The position numbers were made by a program, and so were the translations under genes. Of a stretch of DNA of 16,029 nt, positions 3,800 to 16,029 are shown in pieces. Under the pieces are notes generated by a model. That model had not been told where the DNA came from. It made no database searches and worked only from the letters and a program-made list of their open reading frames with translations. How positions within the stretch are numbered: the stretch's first letter is position 1; each line of letters starts with the position of its first letter. This stretch comes from a virus, in UHGV virus genome UHGV-0264118; one strand, given 5' to 3'.

Positions 3800-4273
3800 A
3801 ACTAAGCCGCCTCGTTGAAGCGACTGAGGTATGAGGTGTTGAGTTGATTTCAGCTGGTCACACCGACGTTCACACGTCCGTTTCACCCCTCGCACTCCCC
3901 GTAGCCTGCTGAAATTCAAGCTGCAGATCTAAGCGGTCATCGCAACGGTGAAGCGGTAAATCAGAAGATTGCCGCATTCCTGTGCCGTTGTGATGGATTT
4001 ATAATACCTATTGCTATTAATCATATCAATACGTATGGGTATCAATCGATAGCATTTGTTGTTATGCTGTTGATACTGAAAAGAATTTAATGTTGAGGTT
4101 TTTTGTGACATTCGACTCAAAATGGATTTTGCAATTAAATAACCAATTGATAACAATGAAAACATCACGGAGAACTAGATAGGCCAAATTACTTGCCACG
4201 AAGATAGTTGTAAGCGTTGATAACAATGGTATTGAGGAGGGATACCCCCGACAATTGCGTCAGGGGGGAGGGA

Positions 4274-4654
4274 TTATTGGGCTTTAATGTAATTTTTCAA
4301 CTTTGCAGTTTGCTCTACAGCGCTAGGAATGCATCCAAACATATTTGCGCATGAGGTTTGAACAACAATTTCGTTCTTATCGTTTCCTAAAGGTGTTTTT
4401 ACAACCTGATATCCAAGCACGGCACTATTTCCAATAGGAGTGTATGTGGAAATTACCGTTTCATCTGCCATCTGAATTTTCCAACCAGAATTCATTGCTA
4501 TCCAAGCTTTGGCTCTCGACCAATATGTATCGCATTGCTCTTTACCTTGACAGTAAACTGGTTGTTGAGCTTGTGCGGCAATTTGGGGATCTATTTTCTG
4601 AGCACATCCAGAGATGCTAATCAGAATAGCTGCTGTAACGAATAGTTTTCTCAT
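4274..4654 (-). CDS. Lipoprotein, likely lysogen-expressed moron in the rexAB position
   Basis: ORF MSMRKLFVTAAILISISGC|AQ... has an N-terminal signal peptide and lipobox (ISGC). The ATG at 4654 has an AAGGAA Shine-Dalgarno 6-7 nt upstream. Lies 48 nt downstream of, and co-oriented with, the repressor gene. AT-rich relative to neighbours. Confidence 0.6.
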   Translation of the reverse strand: MRKLFVTAAILISISGCAQKIDPQIAAQAQQPVYCQGKEQCDTYWSRAKAWIAMNSGWKIQMADETVISTYTPIGNSAVLGYQVVKTPLGNDKNEIVVQTSCANMFGCIPSAVEQTAKLKNYIKAQ

Positions 4655-4702
4655 TGACATTTCCTTTGTTTTGAATATACAACAAATAAATTGGCAAAAA
4701 AA

Positions 4703-5395
4703 TTATCCGTGTTTTCTATATGTCTGCGGCATGCTTCCAATGACTTTACCGAAGATGAACACCCGGTTCATCTCGTCTTTCTCGATCGGGTCCCACGGTG
4801 AGTAGCTCTTGTTATCAGAGATAACCAGCAGCTTATCCTTCATCATTTGCAGGCGCTTTACATGGGCTGTGTCGTCGTACAGAAACGCATAGATACCATC
4901 ACCGTCGAAAGATTTAACAGTGATATCAACGAACAAAAGATCACCTGGTTCGATCGTTCCTGACATGCTGTCACCGCGTACGTTAATGATGCGGATATTT
5001 TCTGCCTTCCTGCCATCGAACATGTGACGAGCATCGTCAAACGAGTACTCAACCGAGCGTAGAACTTCTACAAACTCACGATTGATGACACCCGGCCCGG
5101 CACTGACTTCTATATCAAGAACGTCAATCTTGAAGTATTTGGAATGGCTGACAGCAGGCTTCCCTGATTGTTGACCGTCATTTCTCATCGGGCCTATGCC
5201 TGATGAGAGCCACTCTGTTCGAACACCCAATGCATTAGCTATTTCAACAATTTTTGTTGAGCCGCGCGCGTTGCCGCTTGTCAGTCTCCAGATTGTGGGT
5301 TGAGCTACGCCAGACGCCTTTGCAAGAGCGCCTTGAGACATTCCAGATTGTTCCATCGCTAGGTTTAAGCGATCAGCAAGAGTTTCTTTTTTCAT
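4703..5395 (-). CDS. cI: CI-type prophage repressor (XRE-family HTH plus S24 LexA-like autopeptidase domain)
   Basis: HTH segment MSQGALAKASGVAQPTIWRLTSG. Ala-Gly cleavage site (EVSAGPG). S24 catalytic motifs GDSM and VKRL. The ATG at 5395 (MKKETLADRL) has no Shine-Dalgarno, consistent with a leaderless PRM-type transcript. The predicted TTG start at 5431 is less likely. Confidence 0.85.
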   Translation of the reverse strand: MKKETLADRLNLAMEQSGMSQGALAKASGVAQPTIWRLTSGNARGSTKIVEIANALGVRTEWLSSGIGPMRNDGQQSGKPAVSHSKYFKIDVLDIEVSAGPGVINREFVEVLRSVEYSFDDARHMFDGRKAENIRIINVRGDSMSGTIEPGDLLFVDITVKSFDGDGIYAFLYDDTAHVKRLQMMKDKLLVISDNKSYSPWDPIEKDEMNRVFIFGKVIGSMPQTYRKHG

Positions 5396-5505
5396 AAGTT
5401 TTAATTTATACGCTTGCGTATTGATGGTCAAAACACGTTTTGCTATTGATTGGGTTAATACGCATTGCTATTATCTATTCATTGCAATACCAATAGGAAT
5501 TGATA
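5396..5505. promoter_or_regulatory. Divergent repressor/cro promoter-operator region (PRM/PR-like)
   Basis: Intergenic region between divergent cI and cro. Near-palindrome ATACGC-TT-GCGTAT at 5408-5421 and related ATACGCATTGCTAT at 5457-5470. Candidate PR: TTGATT (5446-5451), 17-nt spacer, TATTAT (5469-5474). Candidate PRM on the minus strand: TTGACC then about 16 nt then ATAAAT, ending just upstream of the leaderless ATG. Confidence 0.5.
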
Positions 5506-5733
5506 ATGACAAATCAAACCATTCAACTCGCAATCAGTATTACAGGTAGTCAAAAACGACTGGCAGATCTCTGCGGTGTAGCCCAACCCACGGTTTGGCG
5601 TTGGCTACACGGTGGCGGAATTGATGCCCGCTATGTAATGAAAATTGTCTCAGCCACTGGTGGAAAGATTAAACCAGCAGATATTCGTCCCGACCTCGCA
5701 CCATTGTTTAACGTGAGTAATTCTTCCGCCTAA
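5506..5733 (+). CDS. Cro/YdaS-like small HTH regulator
   Basis: 75-aa ORF from the ATG at 5506 (predicted TTG at 5500). AGGA Shine-Dalgarno 7 nt upstream. HTH segment SQKRLADLCGVAQPTVWRW. Divergent from the repressor. Confidence 0.7.
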   Translation: MTNQTIQLAISITGSQKRLADLCGVAQPTVWRWLHGGGIDARYVMKIVSATGGKIKPADIRPDLAPLFNVSNSSA

Positions 5734-5763
5734 TCTGCGGAGTTAACTGATAAGGCAATTACT

Positions 5764-6303
5764 ATGCAACCAATTACATACCAACAGACTAGCGGATTTA
5801 CCCCGGCTGCGGTGATAAATCGTTCTCAAACAAAACAGGCGCCAGGCCACGAAAAAATCCGTGATGCCGTTCGCGCCTGGTCGGCTGCAGATAATCAGGA
5901 TGTTGTTGCCGCACTCATTGTGAATGAGTATCGGGAGCAGGGCGGCGGCACCATCGATTTCCCTGATGATGTCAGCCGTGCACGCCAGAAGCTGTTCCGC
6001 TTCCTCGATAACAAATTCGATTCTGAAAAATACCGAAATAACGTGCGTGAACTGACCCCGGCAATTCTGGCGGTACTACCGCTGGAATATCGCGGTTACC
6101 TGGTTGAGCAGGATAGCTTCATGGCCAGGTTGGCTGAAATGGAAAAGGAACTCAGTGAGGCAAAACAGGCTGTCATTCTCAACGCACCACGCCACCAGAA
6201 ACTGAAGGAAATTGGTGAAGGTATTGTATCGATGTTTCGTGTGGACCCAGATCTGGCTGGTCCATTGATGGCGATGGTTACTACCATGCTGGGGGCGATA
6301 TGA
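5764..6303 (+). CDS. YdaT-like or CII-like regulatory protein (family assignment tentative)
   Basis: 179-aa ORF directly downstream of the cro-like gene, in the position of cII/ydaT. Motifs EYREQGGG and LTPAILAVLP recall YdaT-family proteins, from recollection only. Confidence 0.5.
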   Translation: MQPITYQQTSGFTPAAVINRSQTKQAPGHEKIRDAVRAWSAADNQDVVAALIVNEYREQGGGTIDFPDDVSRARQKLFRFLDNKFDSEKYRNNVRELTPAILAVLPLEYRGYLVEQDSFMARLAEMEKELSEAKQAVILNAPRHQKLKEIGEGIVSMFRVDPDLAGPLMAMVTTMLGAI

Positions 6304-8383: not shown

Positions 8384-8716
8384 ATGAACCCTTATATTTA
8401 TCTTGGTGGTGCAATACTTGCAGAGGTCATTGGTACAACCTTAATGAAGTTTTCAGAAGGTTTTACACGGTTATGGCCATCTGTTGGTACAATTATTTGT
8501 TATTGTGCATCATTCTGGTTATTAGCTCAGACGCTGGCTTATATTCCTACAGGGATTGCTTATGCTATCTGGTCAGGAGTCGGTATTGTCCTGATTAGCT
8601 TACTGTCATGGGGACTTTTCGGCCAACGGCTGGACCTGCCAGCCATTATAGGCATGATGTTGATTTGTGCCGGTGTGTTGGTTATTAATTTATTGTCACG
8701 AAGCACACCACATTAA
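8384..8716 (+). CDS. emrE: SMR-family multidrug efflux transporter EmrE
   Basis: 110-aa translation from the ATG at 8384 (MNPYIYLGGAILAEVIGTTLMKFSEGFTRLWPSVGTIICYCASFWLLAQTLAYIPTGIAYAIWSGVGIVLISLLSWG...) matches E. coli EmrE with its four transmembrane helices. The predicted ORF starts earlier at 8330. Confidence 0.95.
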   Translation: MNPYIYLGGAILAEVIGTTLMKFSEGFTRLWPSVGTIICYCASFWLLAQTLAYIPTGIAYAIWSGVGIVLISLLSWGLFGQRLDLPAIIGMMLICAGVLVINLLSRSTPH

Positions 8717-8972: not shown

Positions 8973-10499
8973 ATGAAAAAAGCCATAGCATATATGCGAT
9001 TTTCATCACCAGGTCAGATGTCTGGCGACTCATTAAACCGACAGAGAAGACTTATTGCTGAATGGTTAAAGGTAAATAGTGATTATTATCTTGATACCAT
9101 AACATATGAAGATTTAGGATTAAGTGCATTCAAAGGAAAGCATGCACAATCAGGAGCTTTTTCGGAATTTTTAGATGCTATAGAGCATGGTTATATATTG
9201 CCAGGAACTACATTGTTAGTTGAAAGTCTGGACAGACTTTCAAGAGAAAAAGTCGGTGAAGCGATTGAACGTCTGAAATTGATTTTGAATCACGGTATTG
9301 ATGTTATAACTCTTTGCGACAATACAGTCTATAATATTGACTCTTTGAATGAGCCATATTCATTAATAAAAGCCATACTTATAGCACAAAGGGCAAATGA
9401 AGAAAGCGAGATAAAGTCAAGTCGGGTTAAATTATCATGGAAGAAAAAACGGCAGGATGCACTGGAATCAGGTACGATTATGACGGCGTCTTGTCCGAGA
9501 TGGCTCTCCTTAGATGACAAAAGAACGGCTTTTGTTCCAGACCCCGACAGGGTGAAAACTATTGAGCTAATTTTTAAACTCAGGATGGAAAGGCGCTCAT
9601 TGAATGCAATAGCCAAGTATTTAAATGATCATGCTGTAAAGAATTTCTCAGGAAAAGAAAGTGCATGGGGACCTTCTGTAATTGAAAAATTATTAGCGAA
9701 TAAAGCTCTGATAGGTATATGCGTACCTTCATATCGTGCAAGAGGTAAAGGAATAAGTGAAATCGCTGGCTATTATCCCAGAGTCATATCAGATGATTTG
9801 TTTTACGCTGTACAGGAAATTCGGTTGGCACCTTTTGGTATTAGCAATAGTAGCAAAAATCCTATGTTGATAAATCTACTTCGAACAGTTATGAAGTGCG
9901 AGGCTTGTGGTAATACCATGATTGTTCATGCGGTATCTGGAAGTTTGCATGGCTATTATGTTTGTCCGATGAGAAGACTGCATCGATGTGACAGGCCATC
10001 AATAAAGAGAGATTTGGTTGATTATAATATCATTAATGAGTTGCTTTTTAATTGTAGTAAAATCCAACCAGTTGAAAACAAGAAAGATGCTAATGAAACT
10101 TTAGAGTTGAAAATTATTGAGCTCCAGATGAAAATTAATAATTTAATTGCTGCATTATCTGTTGCGCCTGAAGTTACCGCTATAGCAGAAAAAATCAGAG
10201 TATTAGATAAGGAATTACGAAGGGCTTCTGTATCATTAAAAACTTTGAAGAGTAAAGCGGTGAGTTCACTTGGTGATTTTCATGCTATTGACTTAACCAG
10301 TAAAAATGGGCGAGAGCTATGTCGTACACTTGCCTATAAAACATTCGAAAAAATCATAATCAATACAGATAATAAAACCTGTGATATCTATTTTATGAAT
10401 GGCATTGTTTTTAAACACTATCCTTTAATGAAAACAATATCCGCCCAGCAGGCGATAAGTACTCTCAAATATATGGTTGATGGTGAGGTTTATTTTTGA
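8973..10499 (+). CDS. ybcK: Large serine recombinase (YbcK-like)
   Basis: 508 aa. N-terminal resolvase-type catalytic motif AIAYMRFSSPGQ (Y-x-R-x-S nucleophile). C-terminal Cys cluster (CEACGN...CPMRRLHRCD) and a coiled-coil segment typical of large serine recombinases. AGGTG Shine-Dalgarno upstream. Markedly AT-rich gene. Confidence 0.85.
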   Translation: MKKAIAYMRFSSPGQMSGDSLNRQRRLIAEWLKVNSDYYLDTITYEDLGLSAFKGKHAQSGAFSEFLDAIEHGYILPGTTLLVESLDRLSREKVGEAIERLKLILNHGIDVITLCDNTVYNIDSLNEPYSLIKAILIAQRANEESEIKSSRVKLSWKKKRQDALESGTIMTASCPRWLSLDDKRTAFVPDPDRVKTIELIFKLRMERRSLNAIAKYLNDHAVKNFSGKESAWGPSVIEKLLANKALIGICVPSYRARGKGISEIAGYYPRVISDDLFYAVQEIRLAPFGISNSSKNPMLINLLRTVMKCEACGNTMIVHAVSGSLHGYYVCPMRRLHRCDRPSIKRDLVDYNIINELLFNCSKIQPVENKKDANETLELKIIELQMKINNLIAALSVAPEVTAIAEKIRVLDKELRRASVSLKTLKSKAVSSLGDFHAIDLTSKNGRELCRTLAYKTFEKIIINTDNKTCDIYFMNGIVFKHYPLMKTISAQQAISTLKYMVDGEVYF

Positions 10500-13207: not shown

Positions 13208-13344
13208 TGTTTGAGTTTTATATGGCAGAACGTCTTCGCCACCGCTGGGGGCGTCTGCGCTTATATCGTTTCCCCGGTTCTGTTTTGACCGATTACCGAA
13301 TACTGAAGAATTACGCCAAAACCCTGACAGGAGCAGGAGTATGA
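13204..13344 (+). CDS. ylcG: YlcG-like small protein (46 aa)
   Basis: Manual translation [46 protein letters not shown]. Start overlaps the rusA stop (ATGA). Confidence 0.55.
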
Positions 13345-13429
13345 AGTCAGAGATAACAATCAACTAATACTGTTTCGTTGATTTTTGCTTGTAATTGGCG
13401 TTCTGGTCTGATTTTTGTGGAGTAAGTTG

Positions 13430-13813
13430 ATGCGTGATATTCAGATGGTTCTTGAGCGTTGGGGAGCGTGGGCGGCTAATAATCATGAAGATGTGACCTG
13501 GTCGTCCATTGCCGCCGGTTTTAAGGGATTAATTACTTCAAAAGTAAAATCTCGCCCGCAATGTTGTGACGATGACGCGATGATCATTTGCGGGTGCATG
13601 GCCCGTCTGAAAAAGAACAACAGCGATTTGCACGATTTATTAGTAGATTATTATGTAGTCGGTATGACATTCATGTCACTGGCAGGTAAGCATTGCTGCT
13701 CTGATGGTTATATCGGGAAAAGGTTACAGAAGGCTGAGGGCATAATTGAAGGGGTGTTAATGGCATTAGATATCCGGTTAGAGATGGATATCGTTGTTAA
13801 TAACTCTAATTAA
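13430..13813 (+). CDS. quuD: Late-gene antiterminator Q, phage 82 type (QuuD-like)
   Basis: 127 aa from the ATG at 13430 ([34 protein letters not shown]...[16 protein letters not shown]...). GGAGTAAG Shine-Dalgarno upstream. The predicted TTG start at 13415 is less likely. Confidence 0.85.
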
Positions 13814-13846
13814 TACGCCAATTATTTACTAAAAGTTATTAAAAAT

Positions 13847-13865
13847 GGGGCGTTGAAACGCCCCC
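13847..13865 (-). terminator. GC hairpin with a flanking T-tract on the minus strand (candidate nmpC terminator or element of the late regulatory region)
   Basis: Stem GGGGCG (13847-13852) / CGCCCC (13859-13864) with loop TTGAAA. On the minus strand it is followed by ATTTTTAATAA. Confidence 0.4.
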
Positions 13866-13952
13866 AAAAATAAAGGGTAATATATAACAGAAGGTTTGTA
13901 TAGTTAGAAGCAAGGTTGTGCTTCTAAAGGAAGTGGCTTGAGGGAGCCACTT

Positions 13953-13990
13953 ATATGTTGGGGAGGCAAAGCCTCCCACAACATATCTTT
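13953..13990 (+). terminator. Candidate tR'-like intrinsic terminator downstream of Q
   Basis: Stem of about 11 bp, GTTGGGGAGGC (13957-13967) / GCCTCCCACAAC (13971-13982), loop AAA, followed by ATATCTTTT on the plus strand. Lies about 145-170 nt downstream of the Q stop. Confidence 0.45.
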
Positions 13991-14001
13991 TAGTAATCAA
14001 A

Positions 14002-15084
14002 TTAGAACTGGTAAACCATACCTACAGCAACGATATCATCGGTAGCAACGCCAGATGCTTTCGTGAAATCGCTCTTATCAATCAGGTTGATTTTGTAGTC
14101 AACAAAAGTGGACATATTTTTGTTGAAGTAATAGGTTGCACCTACATCAACATATTCAACCAGGTCCTGATCACCCCAAACACCCAAGTCTTTTCCTTTA
14201 GAATGCAGGTAAGCAACGGATGGACGCAGGCCGAAGTCGAACTGATATTGTGCAACAGCTTCGAAGTTTTGTGCTTTGTTGGCAATATGGTTATTACCAA
14301 AAACAGTCATGTTCTGGGTTTCAGAATAGGTGGTGGCCAGATAGATGTTGTTCGCATCATATTTCAGACCAGCTGCCCATACTTCAGCATTTTGACCAGA
14401 AGCATTCAGACCGTTGTTACCGTAGATAACCTGATTATTAGTGCGATCAGATTTAGCATAGGTTGCACCCACGCCGAATCCTTCATACTCATAAGTAGTT
14501 GAGAAACCGAAACCATCGCCATTAGCTTCAGTTACTTCATTTCGGTCATTTTTGCCCTGATACTGAGCTGCAAAGTTCAGGCCATCAACCAGACCAAAGA
14601 AGTCGTTGTTACGATAAGTTGCAACACCTGTGGTGCGACCAGTCATGAATACATCTGTTTGGGTCCAGGTATCGCCACCGAATTCTGGCAGAACGTCAGT
14701 CCACGCACCGATGTCGTATGCTACACCGTAGTTACGGCCGTAATCGATTGAGCCGTAGTCACCGAATTTCAGGCCTGCAAATGCAAGACGGGTTTTGTCT
14801 TTGGAGGAACCTTGAGATTCAGCGCGGTTGCCTTTGAATTCATATTCCCACTGACCGAAACCAGTCAGTTGATCGTTGATTTGGGTTTCACCTTTGAAGC
14901 CAAGACGGGCATAAGTAGTATCACCATCATCTGCATCATTAGAGGAGAAGTAGTGCTTAGCATTAACTTTCCCGTACAGATCCAGCTTGTTACTGTCTTT
15001 ATTATAAATTTCAGCTGCCTGAGCAGACATCGCCATCAGTACTGATGCAGCTACAGCAGAAATTGCCACTGTTAATTTTTTCAT
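14002..15084 (-). CDS. nmpC: Outer-membrane general porin (OmpC/OmpF family), NmpC-like
   Basis: 360 aa. Signal peptide [23 protein letters not shown]|AEIYNKD. Beta-barrel porin hallmarks and C-terminal ...VAVGMVYQF. Convergent with Q, between Q and the lysis genes. Confidence 0.9.
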
Positions 15085-15672
15085 CGTGAGCCCTTTTTTT
15101 TGAACTATTATTAAAAAATGATGTCACTGCGCGATAAATATTCATCTAATCAATGTGATTATTTCAAGATGTAAGTTTTAGTTTCTCATTTAATTTGTGA
15201 AGTAGATCTCTATTTTTATCTGAACTTTTTCTATCGAAACCTATTTATGGCTCTTATTTGAACAAAAATAAACCTATTAGCTAATTTATATTAATGGCTG
15301 TTATTTATGGGGGTTCTATAATTCGGCAGTTTAATTTAAATCAACTAAAAATAACGTCTGAAATTATTTATTGGTTATTTGTTGAGGTTTTCTTATGTAT
15401 TTGTGGTGGAGTTTTGAACACTCGGTAGCATTCTCATAAATATCATTCAGTGGTTTACGTACGTAAAAAATTGGTTATGCTGTTAAGAGTGGTTACTTCG
15501 TCACACAGCTTAAACCCGCCGTCGAGCTGGTTTTTCCATTTTTTGAGTCTCGATATTAGCTGATAACTCAATACCTGAGTTATTCACTGACTCCGAGTCT
15601 GTTACGTTTCTGCTTTTTTGCGATACGTTGTATTCCCTCAATTTACACCCGCTTTGTCTGCGAGGTGGGGTT

Positions 15673-15888
15673 ATGAAATCCATGGATAAGTTAACAACGG
15701 GTATCGCCTATGGCACCTCAGCAGGTAGTGCCGGTTACTGGTTTTTACAGCTGCTCGATAAAGTCACGCCCTCACAGTGGGCAGCAATAGGTGTGCTGGG
15801 TAGCCTGGTATTTGGCCTGCTGACGTACCTGACAAACCTTTATTTCAAGATTAAAGAAGATAAGCGCAAGGCTGCGAGAGGTGAATAA
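15673..15888 (+). CDS. essD: Class II holin, phage 21 S-type (EssD-like), dual-start
   Basis: 71 aa from the ATG at 15673 ([71 protein letters not shown]). MKSM dual-start motif. GAGGTGGGG Shine-Dalgarno upstream. Confidence 0.9.
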
Positions 15889-16029
15889 TGCCTCCATCAT
15901 TACGAAAAGCCGTTGCTGCTGCTATTGGTGGCGGAGCAATTGCTATAGCATCAGTGTTAATCACTGGCCCAAGTGGTAACGATGGTCTGGAAGGTGTCAG
16001 CTACATACCATACAAAGATATTGTTGGTG
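15888..16029 (+). CDS. rrrD: SAR endolysin (phage 21 R-type lysozyme), N-terminal fragment cut by the window end
   Basis: Translation [47 protein letters not shown]... with a Gly/Ala-rich signal-anchor-release segment. Start overlaps the holin stop (TAATG). Confidence 0.85.

Follow-up and report, generated by a model that had tools for sequence, protein, structure and literature searches.

The analysed window, 16,029 nucleotides of the virus genome UHGV-0264118, carries a porin gene (14002..15084, − strand) between two + strand genes of phage late functions. To its left, quuD (13430..13813), the name given to this gene in identical E. coli records, encodes a Q-family late antiterminator that matches Pfam PF06530 Phage_antitermQ over its full length (E = 5.4e-53) and, distantly, the Q21 structures 6JNX and 6P18. 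To its right, essD (15673..15888) is annotated as an S21-type (P21-type) holin, and its product matches PF04971 (E = 2.2e-35) and shows the dual-start motif MKSM. Coordinates and Pfam matches thus agree with the initial annotation that the porin lies between Q and the holin on the opposite strand. Identical 1.9-kb regions are annotated quuD, porin and essD in many E. coli chromosomes, within a prophage that carries int, xis, exo-bet-gam, cI, O and P, terminase and capsid genes. The spacer between the ATG codons of the porin and essD is 588 bp long (15085-15672); the right-hand limit of 15627 given previously marks an alternative start, a TTG that precedes the holin ATG of the annotation. Of the roughly 540 bp of AT-rich DNA described upstream of the porin, the AT-richness stands over ~15050-15450, where GC content is 26-32%, climbing to 38-46% beyond and compared with 43-56% in the nin/Q region. 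However, this is not one porin upstream region: the spacer is a composite in which the porin promoter and an AT-rich stretch are followed, towards essD, by the late promoter PR', a terminator-like hairpin and the leader of the holin gene.

The porin gene is a single ATG-to-TAA frame of 360 codons, and a check for stops and frameshifts found no internal ones, in line with its description as intact. Its product of the NmpC/Lc/OmpD type matches Pfam PF00267 Porin_1 along the entire profile (positions 1-337 of 337, residues 29-360, E = 3.6e-152, 507 bits against a cut-off of 23.7 bits), and residues 24-360 align from residue 1 of the mature OmpC, OmpK36, PhoE and OmpF crystal chains, with E-values down to 2e-135. 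Since residue 24 corresponds to residue 1 of these mature chains, residues 1-23 (15016-15084, − strand), which run basic-hydrophobic-AQA, are assigned as the signal peptide, and the mature porin would start at AEIYNKD after predicted cleavage. The PEFGG constriction motif of loop 3 lies within residues 131-140, and the C-terminus, ...VGMVYQF, ends in Phe, an aromatic residue for assembly. The reading frame, Pfam match and crystal-chain alignments bear out a full-length OmpC/OmpF-family porin with its signal peptide, and the end-to-end alignment to solved porins suggests a trimeric 16-strand β-barrel with pore activity. Among NCBIfam models, the protein scores above the cut-off solely for the broad "porin OmpC" subfamily (515 vs 484) and stays below the equivalog cut-offs of PhoE (505 vs 599) and OmpF (480 vs 583), so that "porin OmpC", its label in RefSeq, names the family and makes no claim of orthology. 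OmpC, OmpF and PhoE have the Pfam family, length class, PEFGG loop-3 motif and C-terminal Phe in common with the porin, at roughly 60% identity. The correct annotation of the gene is NmpC/OmpD-type, not OmpC. Its nearest relatives outside Escherichia are chromosomal OmpD-type porins, which align over the full length with 76-80% identity.

Alignment to K-12 NmpC (b0553) of the DLP12 prophage gives 91% protein identity, and nmpC likewise lies between quuD and essD in the same orientation. The initial annotation gave the K-12 gene as disrupted by IS5, and it is indeed an annotated pseudogene, split by IS5B 58 nt before the stop codon; the IS5B target is CTAA, whereas the corresponding tetranucleotide in the window gene is CGAA. 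The first 128 codons, the proximal promoter, the 3' ipeX region and the PR' block are 95-99.5% identical between DLP12 and the window (97-99.5% for the codons and proximal promoter), while the proteins differ in five short patches and in length (360 aa in the window, 365 aa in K-12). The prophages also differ, as that of the window is far more complete than DLP12, with exo, bet, gam, cI, O and P all in place; its neighbour in the near-identical strain AH65 is ybhB, whereas that of DLP12 is argU. Another phage-borne porin is Lc (protein 2) of the lambdoid phage PA-2, which is expressed in lysogens and whose transcript tail, a 3' UTR containing ipeX, is reported to lower OmpC. Some sources name the cluster of the window porin "outer membrane porin protein LC", as for PA-2 Lc. 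The lc gene of PA-2 is presumably close to the K-12-type allele.

Upstream of the porin ATG, 15085..15215 (− strand) comprises the 5' UTR and the core promoter, PnmpC, and these 131 bp are 96.9% identical to K-12. The ompD genes of Salmonella, Citrobacter and Enterobacter can also be aligned around the −35 element and over part of the 5' UTR, but their distal upstream DNA is unrelated to that of the window. This alignment suggests a transcription start at a G near 15132 and a −35 element TTGAAA at 15162-15167, both on the − strand. In K-12, PnmpC is contained within −199/−210 of the ATG, starts at a G by 5' RACE, is activated by CRP, is repressed by OmpR, IHF and MprA, and shows higher activity at 37 °C. 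A candidate CRP-like site in the window, TGTGA-N6-TCTCT (15196-15211, + strand), does not line up with the CRP-like element of the ompD promoters. A consensus promoter scan called neither PnmpC, whose core elements match the consensus poorly, nor PR'; its only two promoter-like matches lie within quuD and are fewer than expected from shuffled sequence. The promoter positions thus rest on homology and the literature, and a promoter of the porin's own is suggested by a 97% match to the PnmpC region mapped by experiment in K-12, together with the ompD promoter alignment. Facing the holin, a putative SigmaE-like promoter (15102..15134, + strand) can be read from the sequence as GAACTA-N16-TCACT with +1 at ~15133-15134, back to back with PnmpC. 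A published reporter study describes its primers as −121..+650 of the DLP12 lysis-operon start, and their coordinates place this +1 at K-12 L002 12874-12875, equivalent to window 15133-15134. Further upstream of the porin, the distal AT-rich spacer (15216..15452, 26-32% GC) varies among alleles, with a mean pairwise difference of 0.105 (11 alleles). A 44-aa ORF within it (15294-15428), listed as a "hypothetical protein" in phage ev099, was rejected as a gene, as in K-12 the start codon is lost and a stop appears early in the frame.

Downstream of the stop codon, the porin 3' UTR (13838..14001, − strand) corresponds to the ipeX small-RNA region, recognised by K-12 identity, folding and published reviews, and comprises four stem-loops. 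The last of these (13847-13864) is a Rho-independent terminator, and the stretch closes with GGGGCGTTTCAACGCCCC and a U-run; the terminator scan called the porin terminator on the − strand only. The initial annotation had overlooked ipeX. In the literature, ipeX is placed between the stop codon of the phage porin and a Rho-independent terminator and is reported to repress host OmpC and OmpF synthesis, although the reviews disagree on its Hfq dependence and the role of base pairing. Aligned to K-12, 194 of 204 positions of the region are identical (95%), and the substitutions fall in loops, linkers, an unpaired position in the bulge of stem 1 and hairpin-flanking stretches. The minimum free energy is −58.5 kcal/mol (z = −8.4 against shuffles), and in an alignment of 11 alleles 98% of the cells keep their pairing. 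These alleles form 7 distinct rows with one compensatory pair, a result equalled in 133 of 500 shuffles and not significant; covariation is thus uninformative, and the case for the fold is one of thermodynamics and conservation. An Rfam scan of 13300-16029 (E ≤ 1) gave no match and hence no curated family for either ipeX or the short transcript from PR'. A small ORF (13839-14000) overlaps the ipeX hairpins and was rejected as a gene. Downstream of chromosomal ompD in Salmonella, Citrobacter and Enterobacter, no ipeX similarity was found; OmpD is not prophage-borne, and its stop codon is followed by a simple terminator without an ipeX-like 3' UTR. The absence of ipeX from these chromosomal loci marks it as a phage-specific addition.

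On the holin side of the AT-rich spacer, homology identifies the late promoter PR' (15453..15488, + strand), with −35 GTTTAC (15453-15458), −10 TATGCT (15476-15481) and a predicted +1 at ~15488, followed by the conserved initial transcribed block AAGAGTGGTTAC. The block 15453-15535 has as its homologue the PR' mapped in Stx phages; in P13803 and Sakai Sp5 it directly abuts the Q stop codon, and in PhiR55_1 it comes after a different insert, that is, another gene in the same slot. In Sakai Sp5, 258 nt separate the predicted start, 7 nt past the −10 hexamer, from the end of the tR' T-run farther downstream, which agrees with the published PR'-to-tR' distance of 258 nt. Among 11 alleles, the PR' block has the lowest diversity of the region (0.007). 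As this block lies to the right of the porin and abuts the Q stop in Stx phages, the porin cassette sits upstream of the late promoter and not inside the late operon, where it had been placed before; it is probably outside the Q-antiterminated late transcript and reads away from PR'. Downstream of PR', folding reveals a terminator-like (tR'-like) hairpin with T-runs (15512..15545, + strand). T15528 weakens its stem relative to K-12, which has an 8-bp stem, whereas the window has an alternative CAGCU/AGCUG stem; the weakened variant also occurs in the phage ev099 record. The leader of the lysis genes (15546..15672, + strand) differs from K-12 by a 16-bp indel (15610-15625), and a predicted hairpin at ~15646-15670 occludes the essD Shine-Dalgarno sequence.

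Several of these features are those of a moron. The Q and PR' flanks of the porin are contiguous in the Stx phages P13803 and Sp5, and the porin has its own − strand terminator and a composition unlike that of its neighbours (26-32% GC upstream, 43-56% in nin/Q). Like stx and other morons, it is cargo of the lambdoid Q-to-S interval, with related Q and PR'. However, stx is encoded on the late strand beyond PR' and tR' and needs Q read-through, whereas the porin cassette precedes PR', is read from the opposite strand and has a terminator and a putative promoter of its own. The segment 13814-15452 is thus very probably a classical lysogenic-conversion porin cassette (nmpC/lc) of DLP12/PA-2-type lambdoid prophages, in which nmpC/lc would represent a general porin of the OmpD branch that is carried by phages. 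This reading draws directly on the intact reading frame, the protein family, the cassette borders, the ipeX sequence and fold, the homology of the promoter and PR', and the prevalence of the region. The cassette would be an autonomous leftward transcription unit with its own sigma70 promoter within ~200 bp of the ATG, and, as it is wedged between the Q stop and the PR' −35, its expression from the prophage would be independent of late transcription. The 360-aa pre-porin would be exported, trimerise in the outer membrane and form a general diffusion pore, while its mRNA would end in the structured ~165-nt 3' UTR ipeX, closed by the Rho-independent terminator, and ipeX would lower OmpC and OmpF synthesis post-transcriptionally, as reported. 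In the lysogen, host porins would be partly replaced by the phage porin, and permeability and susceptibility to porin-dependent phages and colicins would change as a consequence. Promoter regulation, ipeX activity and expression in lysogens are carried over from the literature on near-identical sequences; the exact start sites and the function in this particular host are predicted.

The cassette is widespread. The exact porin protein is found on at least 1000 public contigs, where it is named OmpD or LC, and the region is present in ~2,465 of 5,426 complete E. coli genomes, while the K-12 IS5 junction occurs in only 295 complete E. coli genomes. Contrary to what the initial annotation implied, intact copies are therefore the norm and the K-12 disruption the exception. 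The module is also found in 36 deposited temperate-phage records with 92-99.5% identity, and each of the nine phage records checked has an intact porin ORF. Amino-acid changes among the phage alleles are limited to five short patches, and the β-strand regions show many nucleotide changes and almost no amino-acid changes, a pattern that points to selection on the porin protein.

This pattern also bears on whether the porin, although intact, may be effectively silent, a "quiescent" cargo without phenotype here, kept off by H-NS bound to the AT-rich DNA. All ChIP studies compared list the spacer between nmpC and essD of K-12 as a "promoter island" occupied by H-NS, nmpC of E. coli B is reported to be "quiescent", and the GC content upstream is 26-32%; if K-12 is a guide, the porin could be largely silent under many conditions. 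Yet silent cargo is an unlikely reading, as K-12 PnmpC gives the only ins5A fusion transcript detectable by 5' RACE, nmpC mRNA is 16.5-fold higher at 37 °C, 89% of UPEC isolates have NmpC in their outer-membrane proteome, the LF82 prophage Perceval expresses it 10-fold above background, and the β-strand pattern indicates selection on the protein.

A further possibility concerns the 588-bp spacer, which might act as a regulatory junction combining the back-to-back SigmaE-type and porin promoters with antisense early read-through. The porin start (~15132, − strand) and the SigmaE-type +1 (~15133-15134, + strand) appear to lie within 2 bp, so the polymerase footprints of both promoters would fully overlap. 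Moreover, Q and the cassette are transcribed towards each other, with no + strand terminator in the cassette, and N-modified early read-through would thus run antisense across ipeX and the porin. If this doubtful proposal were true, envelope stress could switch on a holin-ward transcript and physically block porin/ipeX transcription, while antisense early transcription after induction could shut conversion off. To our knowledge, neither coupling has been described before.

It could also be speculated that the ipeX RNA is the main selected product, acting through host-porin shut-down and exclusion of OmpC-dependent phages, and that the porin chiefly compensates for the permeability lost. The diversity of ipeX (0.046) is lower than that of the distal two-thirds of the porin CDS (0.12-0.16), ipeX is absent from chromosomal ompD loci and hence a phage-specific addition, and K-12 retains an almost identical ipeX despite its broken porin. 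However, the nine intact phage ORFs, with amino-acid changes confined to five patches, speak against it, and in K-12 IS5 lies between the promoter and ipeX, so retention may reflect a recent disruption; we consider this reading improbable. That the porin is a late-operon passenger, expressed or silenced through Q-dependent transcription across it, is very hard to credit: while it lies between the Q and S genes and the late transcript does include other morons such as stx, the porin is encoded on the opposite strand, and the PR' homologue (15453-15488) is to its right, abuts the Q stop in Stx phages and is the most conserved segment. In addition, a K-12 reporter limited to the nmpC-essD spacer plus ~120 bp from the start of essD is reported to be expressed and to respond to pH and osmolarity.

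As a lysogenic-conversion cassette of the nmpC/lc type, the porin module is real but ordinary and already described. The initial annotation held that a prophage-encoded porin can alter the outer membrane of lysogens, and published work concurs: lysogens produce porins of this type, and the composition of their outer membrane changes. For NmpC and Lc, knowledge of such effects goes back to the 1970s-80s, and for ipeX to 2006. Prophage porins of the NmpC/Lc type shift the porin make-up of the outer membrane in E. coli lysogens, and this bears on permeability to antibiotics and nutrients, sensitivity to porin-dependent phages and colicins, and surface antigenicity.

The porin gene at 14002-15084 on the minus strand is one open reading frame of 360 codons, running from ATG to TAA, in which no internal stops or frameshifts were found. 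It is flanked by the Q-family antiterminator gene quuD (13430-13813, plus strand) and by essD (15673-15888, plus strand), encoding an S21-type holin. The protein covers the Pfam general-porin profile end to end (1-337 of 337, E = 3.6e-152), and both the loop-3 motif PEFGG and a terminal ...VYQF are found in it. The mature chains of solved OmpC, OmpK36/37, PhoE and OmpF align, from their first residue on, with the stretch from residue 24 to the C-terminal Phe, which makes residues 1-23 the signal peptide. The initial annotation of an intact, full-length porin with a signal peptide between Q and the holin is hence borne out. The RefSeq name 'OmpC' is a family label, since the protein clears only the broad 'porin OmpC' subfamily model of NCBIfam and scores below the equivalog cut-offs for PhoE and OmpF. 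The gene product is the prophage porin NmpC/Lc and shares 91% protein identity with K-12 NmpC. Beyond Escherichia, chromosomal porins of the OmpD type from Citrobacter, Salmonella and Enterobacter come closest, at 76-80% identity.

Many E. coli strains have chromosomal prophage DNA that is 100% identical to the 1.9 kb around the porin. The copy in strain AH65 lies inside a lambdoid prophage that carries genes for integrase, exo-bet-gam, repressor, O and P and continues with emrE, ybcK, nin genes, quuD, porin, essD-rrrD, terminase and capsid genes. Among deposited temperate phages, 36 genomes carry the Q-porin-S module (92-99.5% identity). The exact porin protein, variously called 'porin OmpD', 'porin OmpC' and 'outer membrane porin protein LC', is found on at least 1000 public contigs. 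Of 5,426 complete E. coli genomes, 2,465 have no less than 80% of the 1.9-kb region at one place; since fragments separated by up to 1.45 kb were merged, IS-split copies may be part of this count. An nmpC::IS5 junction of the K-12 type occurs in 295 genomes, those listed being mostly K-12 laboratory derivatives. Intact copies are the rule, and all nine phage porin alleles extracted are intact (360 or 365 aa). The IS5 disruption of K-12 nmpC named in the initial annotation agrees with the MG1655 record, where nmpC is a pseudogene that IS5B interrupts 58 nt ahead of the stop. The IS5 target CTAA in K-12 nmpC (TTAG on the plus strand) is replaced by CGAA (TTCG) at window 14060-14063, so the K-12 insertion site as such is absent from this allele.

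Elsewhere in the prophage, the interval that separates the replication genes from the nin region holds two further cargo genes, an arrangement shared with DLP12: emrE (8384-8716; Pfam Multi_Drug_Res), for a multidrug efflux pump of the SMR type, and ybcK (8973-10499), for a large serine recombinase. AH65 is 98-99.9% identical elsewhere in aligned segments but differs in the immunity region (3958-5763), which looks like a cassette exchanged as a module. An S24/HTH repressor (4703-5431, minus strand), a cro-like ORF (5500-5733) and a 128-aa ORF with no Pfam hit (4274-4660) are located here. A YdaT_toxin-domain gene (5764-6303) lies directly downstream of the cro-like gene, before O and P.

Upstream of the porin ATG, GC content is 26-32% up to ~15450 and higher beyond. 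The ~540 bp was thus rightly described as AT-rich, yet it is not a single porin upstream region but a composite of promoter, spacer, the phage late promoter PR' and holin leader. In K-12, a stretch of 199-210 bp ahead of the ATG contains the porin promoter PnmpC, whose start was mapped to a G by 5' RACE; CRP activates it via two sites, while OmpR, IHF and MprA repress it. The window is 97% identical to K-12 in this region, and alignment with ompD upstream regions points to TTGAAA (15162-15167) as the putative porin -35 and to a start close to G15132. A 44-aa ORF at 15294-15428, listed as a hypothetical protein in the ev099 and PhiR29_1 phage records, is unlikely to be a gene, as K-12 has ACG for ATG and a stop after 10 codons. 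The K-12 nmpC/essD spacer is among 78 listed 'promoter islands' and is H-NS-bound in all compared ChIP studies, which explains the AT-rich tract and is in line with the strong induction of nmpC reported at 37 °C in CFT073 and K-12 MC4100. It could be speculated that H-NS represses the porin gene to silence, yet this is unlikely: together with the 37 °C data, the 10-fold level of NmpC over local background for the LF82 prophage Perceval and its detection among the outer-membrane proteins of 89% of UPEC isolates are published support for expression in lysogens.

A second promoter may face the lysis genes. A published DLP12 lysis-operon lux reporter is described as covering positions -121 to +650 relative to the transcription start that Rueggeberg et al. 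2015 determined. The reporter primers map to window 15012 and ~15795-15800, and from these coordinates the lysis-operon +1 is deduced to be 15133-15134 on the plus strand, with an uncertainty of 1-2 nt. The deduced +1 is preceded by GAACTA-N16-TCACT, resembling the sigmaE consensus. If this +1 is right, the lysis-ward start would apparently stand back to back with the PnmpC start, ~2 bp apart.

Downstream of the porin, ~165 nt separate the stop codon from the terminator closing the transcript (13847-13864, minus strand; GGGGCGTTTCAACGCCCC followed by a U-run), and four strong hairpins are predicted (-58.5 kcal/mol, z = -8.4). Judged by sequence, this 3' UTR is ipeX: 194 of 204 positions are identical to K-12, and substitutions fall in loops, linkers, an unpaired bulge position of stem 1 and stretches flanking the hairpins. 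Rfam holds no family for ipeX, and covariation among available alleles is too sparse to bear on the predicted fold. According to reviews, IpeX is a 167-nt DLP12 RNA that represses OmpC and OmpF; it is transcribed together with the porin from the phage-porin promoter and is processed afterwards. In contrast, chromosomal ompD genes are followed only by a simple terminator with nothing similar to ipeX, making ipeX a phage-specific addition. That ipeX is the main selected product of the cassette is improbable; the porin itself displays the usual pattern, in which the barrel is under purifying selection and the surface loops diversify. Despite nucleotide divergence, amino-acid changes among porin alleles sit in five short patches (mature residues 159-164, 193-208, 240-244, 280-287 and 312-324), presumably external loops L4-L8 given the OmpF topology. 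Identity to K-12 is 97.5-99.5% over the first ~128 porin codons, 76-86% over the remaining CDS, 94.7% in the 3' UTR, 96.9% in the proximal 131 bp upstream of the porin, 84.5% in the distal AT-rich spacer and 98.1% in the PR' block. Among 11 alleles, mean pairwise difference is 0.007 in the PR' block, 0.013 in Q, 0.021 in porin codons 1-128, 0.026 in the proximal promoter, 0.046 in ipeX, 0.105 in the distal spacer and 0.12-0.16 in the remaining porin.

The PR' block (15453-15535) consists of GTTTAC-N17-TATGCT, then AAGAGTGGTTAC and a hairpin with a T-run, and is homologous to the sequence directly after the Q stop codon in Stx phages. In Sakai Sp5, 258 nt separate the predicted start, set 7 nt after the -10 hexamer, from the end of the T-run of the terminator tR', matching the published PR'-to-tR' distance. 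In phage PhiR55_1, the block is preceded by a different minus-strand gene that lacks a Pfam match (1280-1726 of its locus, L004; 148 aa). Between the Q stop and the PR' -35 there is thus a slot, empty in Stx phages and filled by an unrelated gene in PhiR55_1 and by the porin cassette here, that seems to be a recurrent cargo site. By this layout, the cassette (13814-15452) probably lies outside the Q-antiterminated late transcript; its initial placement inside the late operon is not supported, and a passenger porin controlled by late transcription is highly improbable.

The terminator-like hairpin after PR' (15512-15545) has GCTGG, with T at 15528, in place of K-12 GCGGG; this breaks the 8-bp stem, and an alternative CAGCU/AGCUG stem forms. 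The variant is also present in ev099 and is therefore not peculiar to the window. In Stx phages, a strong hairpin and T7 lie only ~30-55 nt past the PR' start (L003 1985-2005, L005 670-697), and despite these the short transcript, as published, continues to a second terminator 258 nt downstream. The holin leader, the final 127 bp before essD, includes a hairpin over the essD ribosome-binding site. A 16-bp segment, ctgcttttttgcgata (15610-15625), is found in the window and ev099 and is missing from K-12. It adjoins two TACGTT hexamers, one at 15603-15608 and one at 15624-15629 that shares the final two bases of the segment, an arrangement suggesting slippage deletion or insertion.

Taken together, the porin cassette very probably serves lysogenic conversion. 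In the prophage, porin and ipeX would be transcribed leftward from PnmpC by sigma70 RNA polymerase, with transcription governed by CRP, OmpR and temperature. The pre-porin would be exported and then assembled as a general diffusion pore, while ipeX would reduce OmpC and OmpF synthesis, so that the phage porin would partly replace the host porins and thereby may alter permeability and receptor availability. The porin, its Q-S position, the K-12 IS5 disruption, ipeX, PnmpC and the H-NS-bound spacer are already described for DLP12, PA-2 or K-12; the small refinements made here are that the cassette lies exactly between Q and PR' and that PnmpC and a sigmaE-type promoter are apparently arranged back to back.
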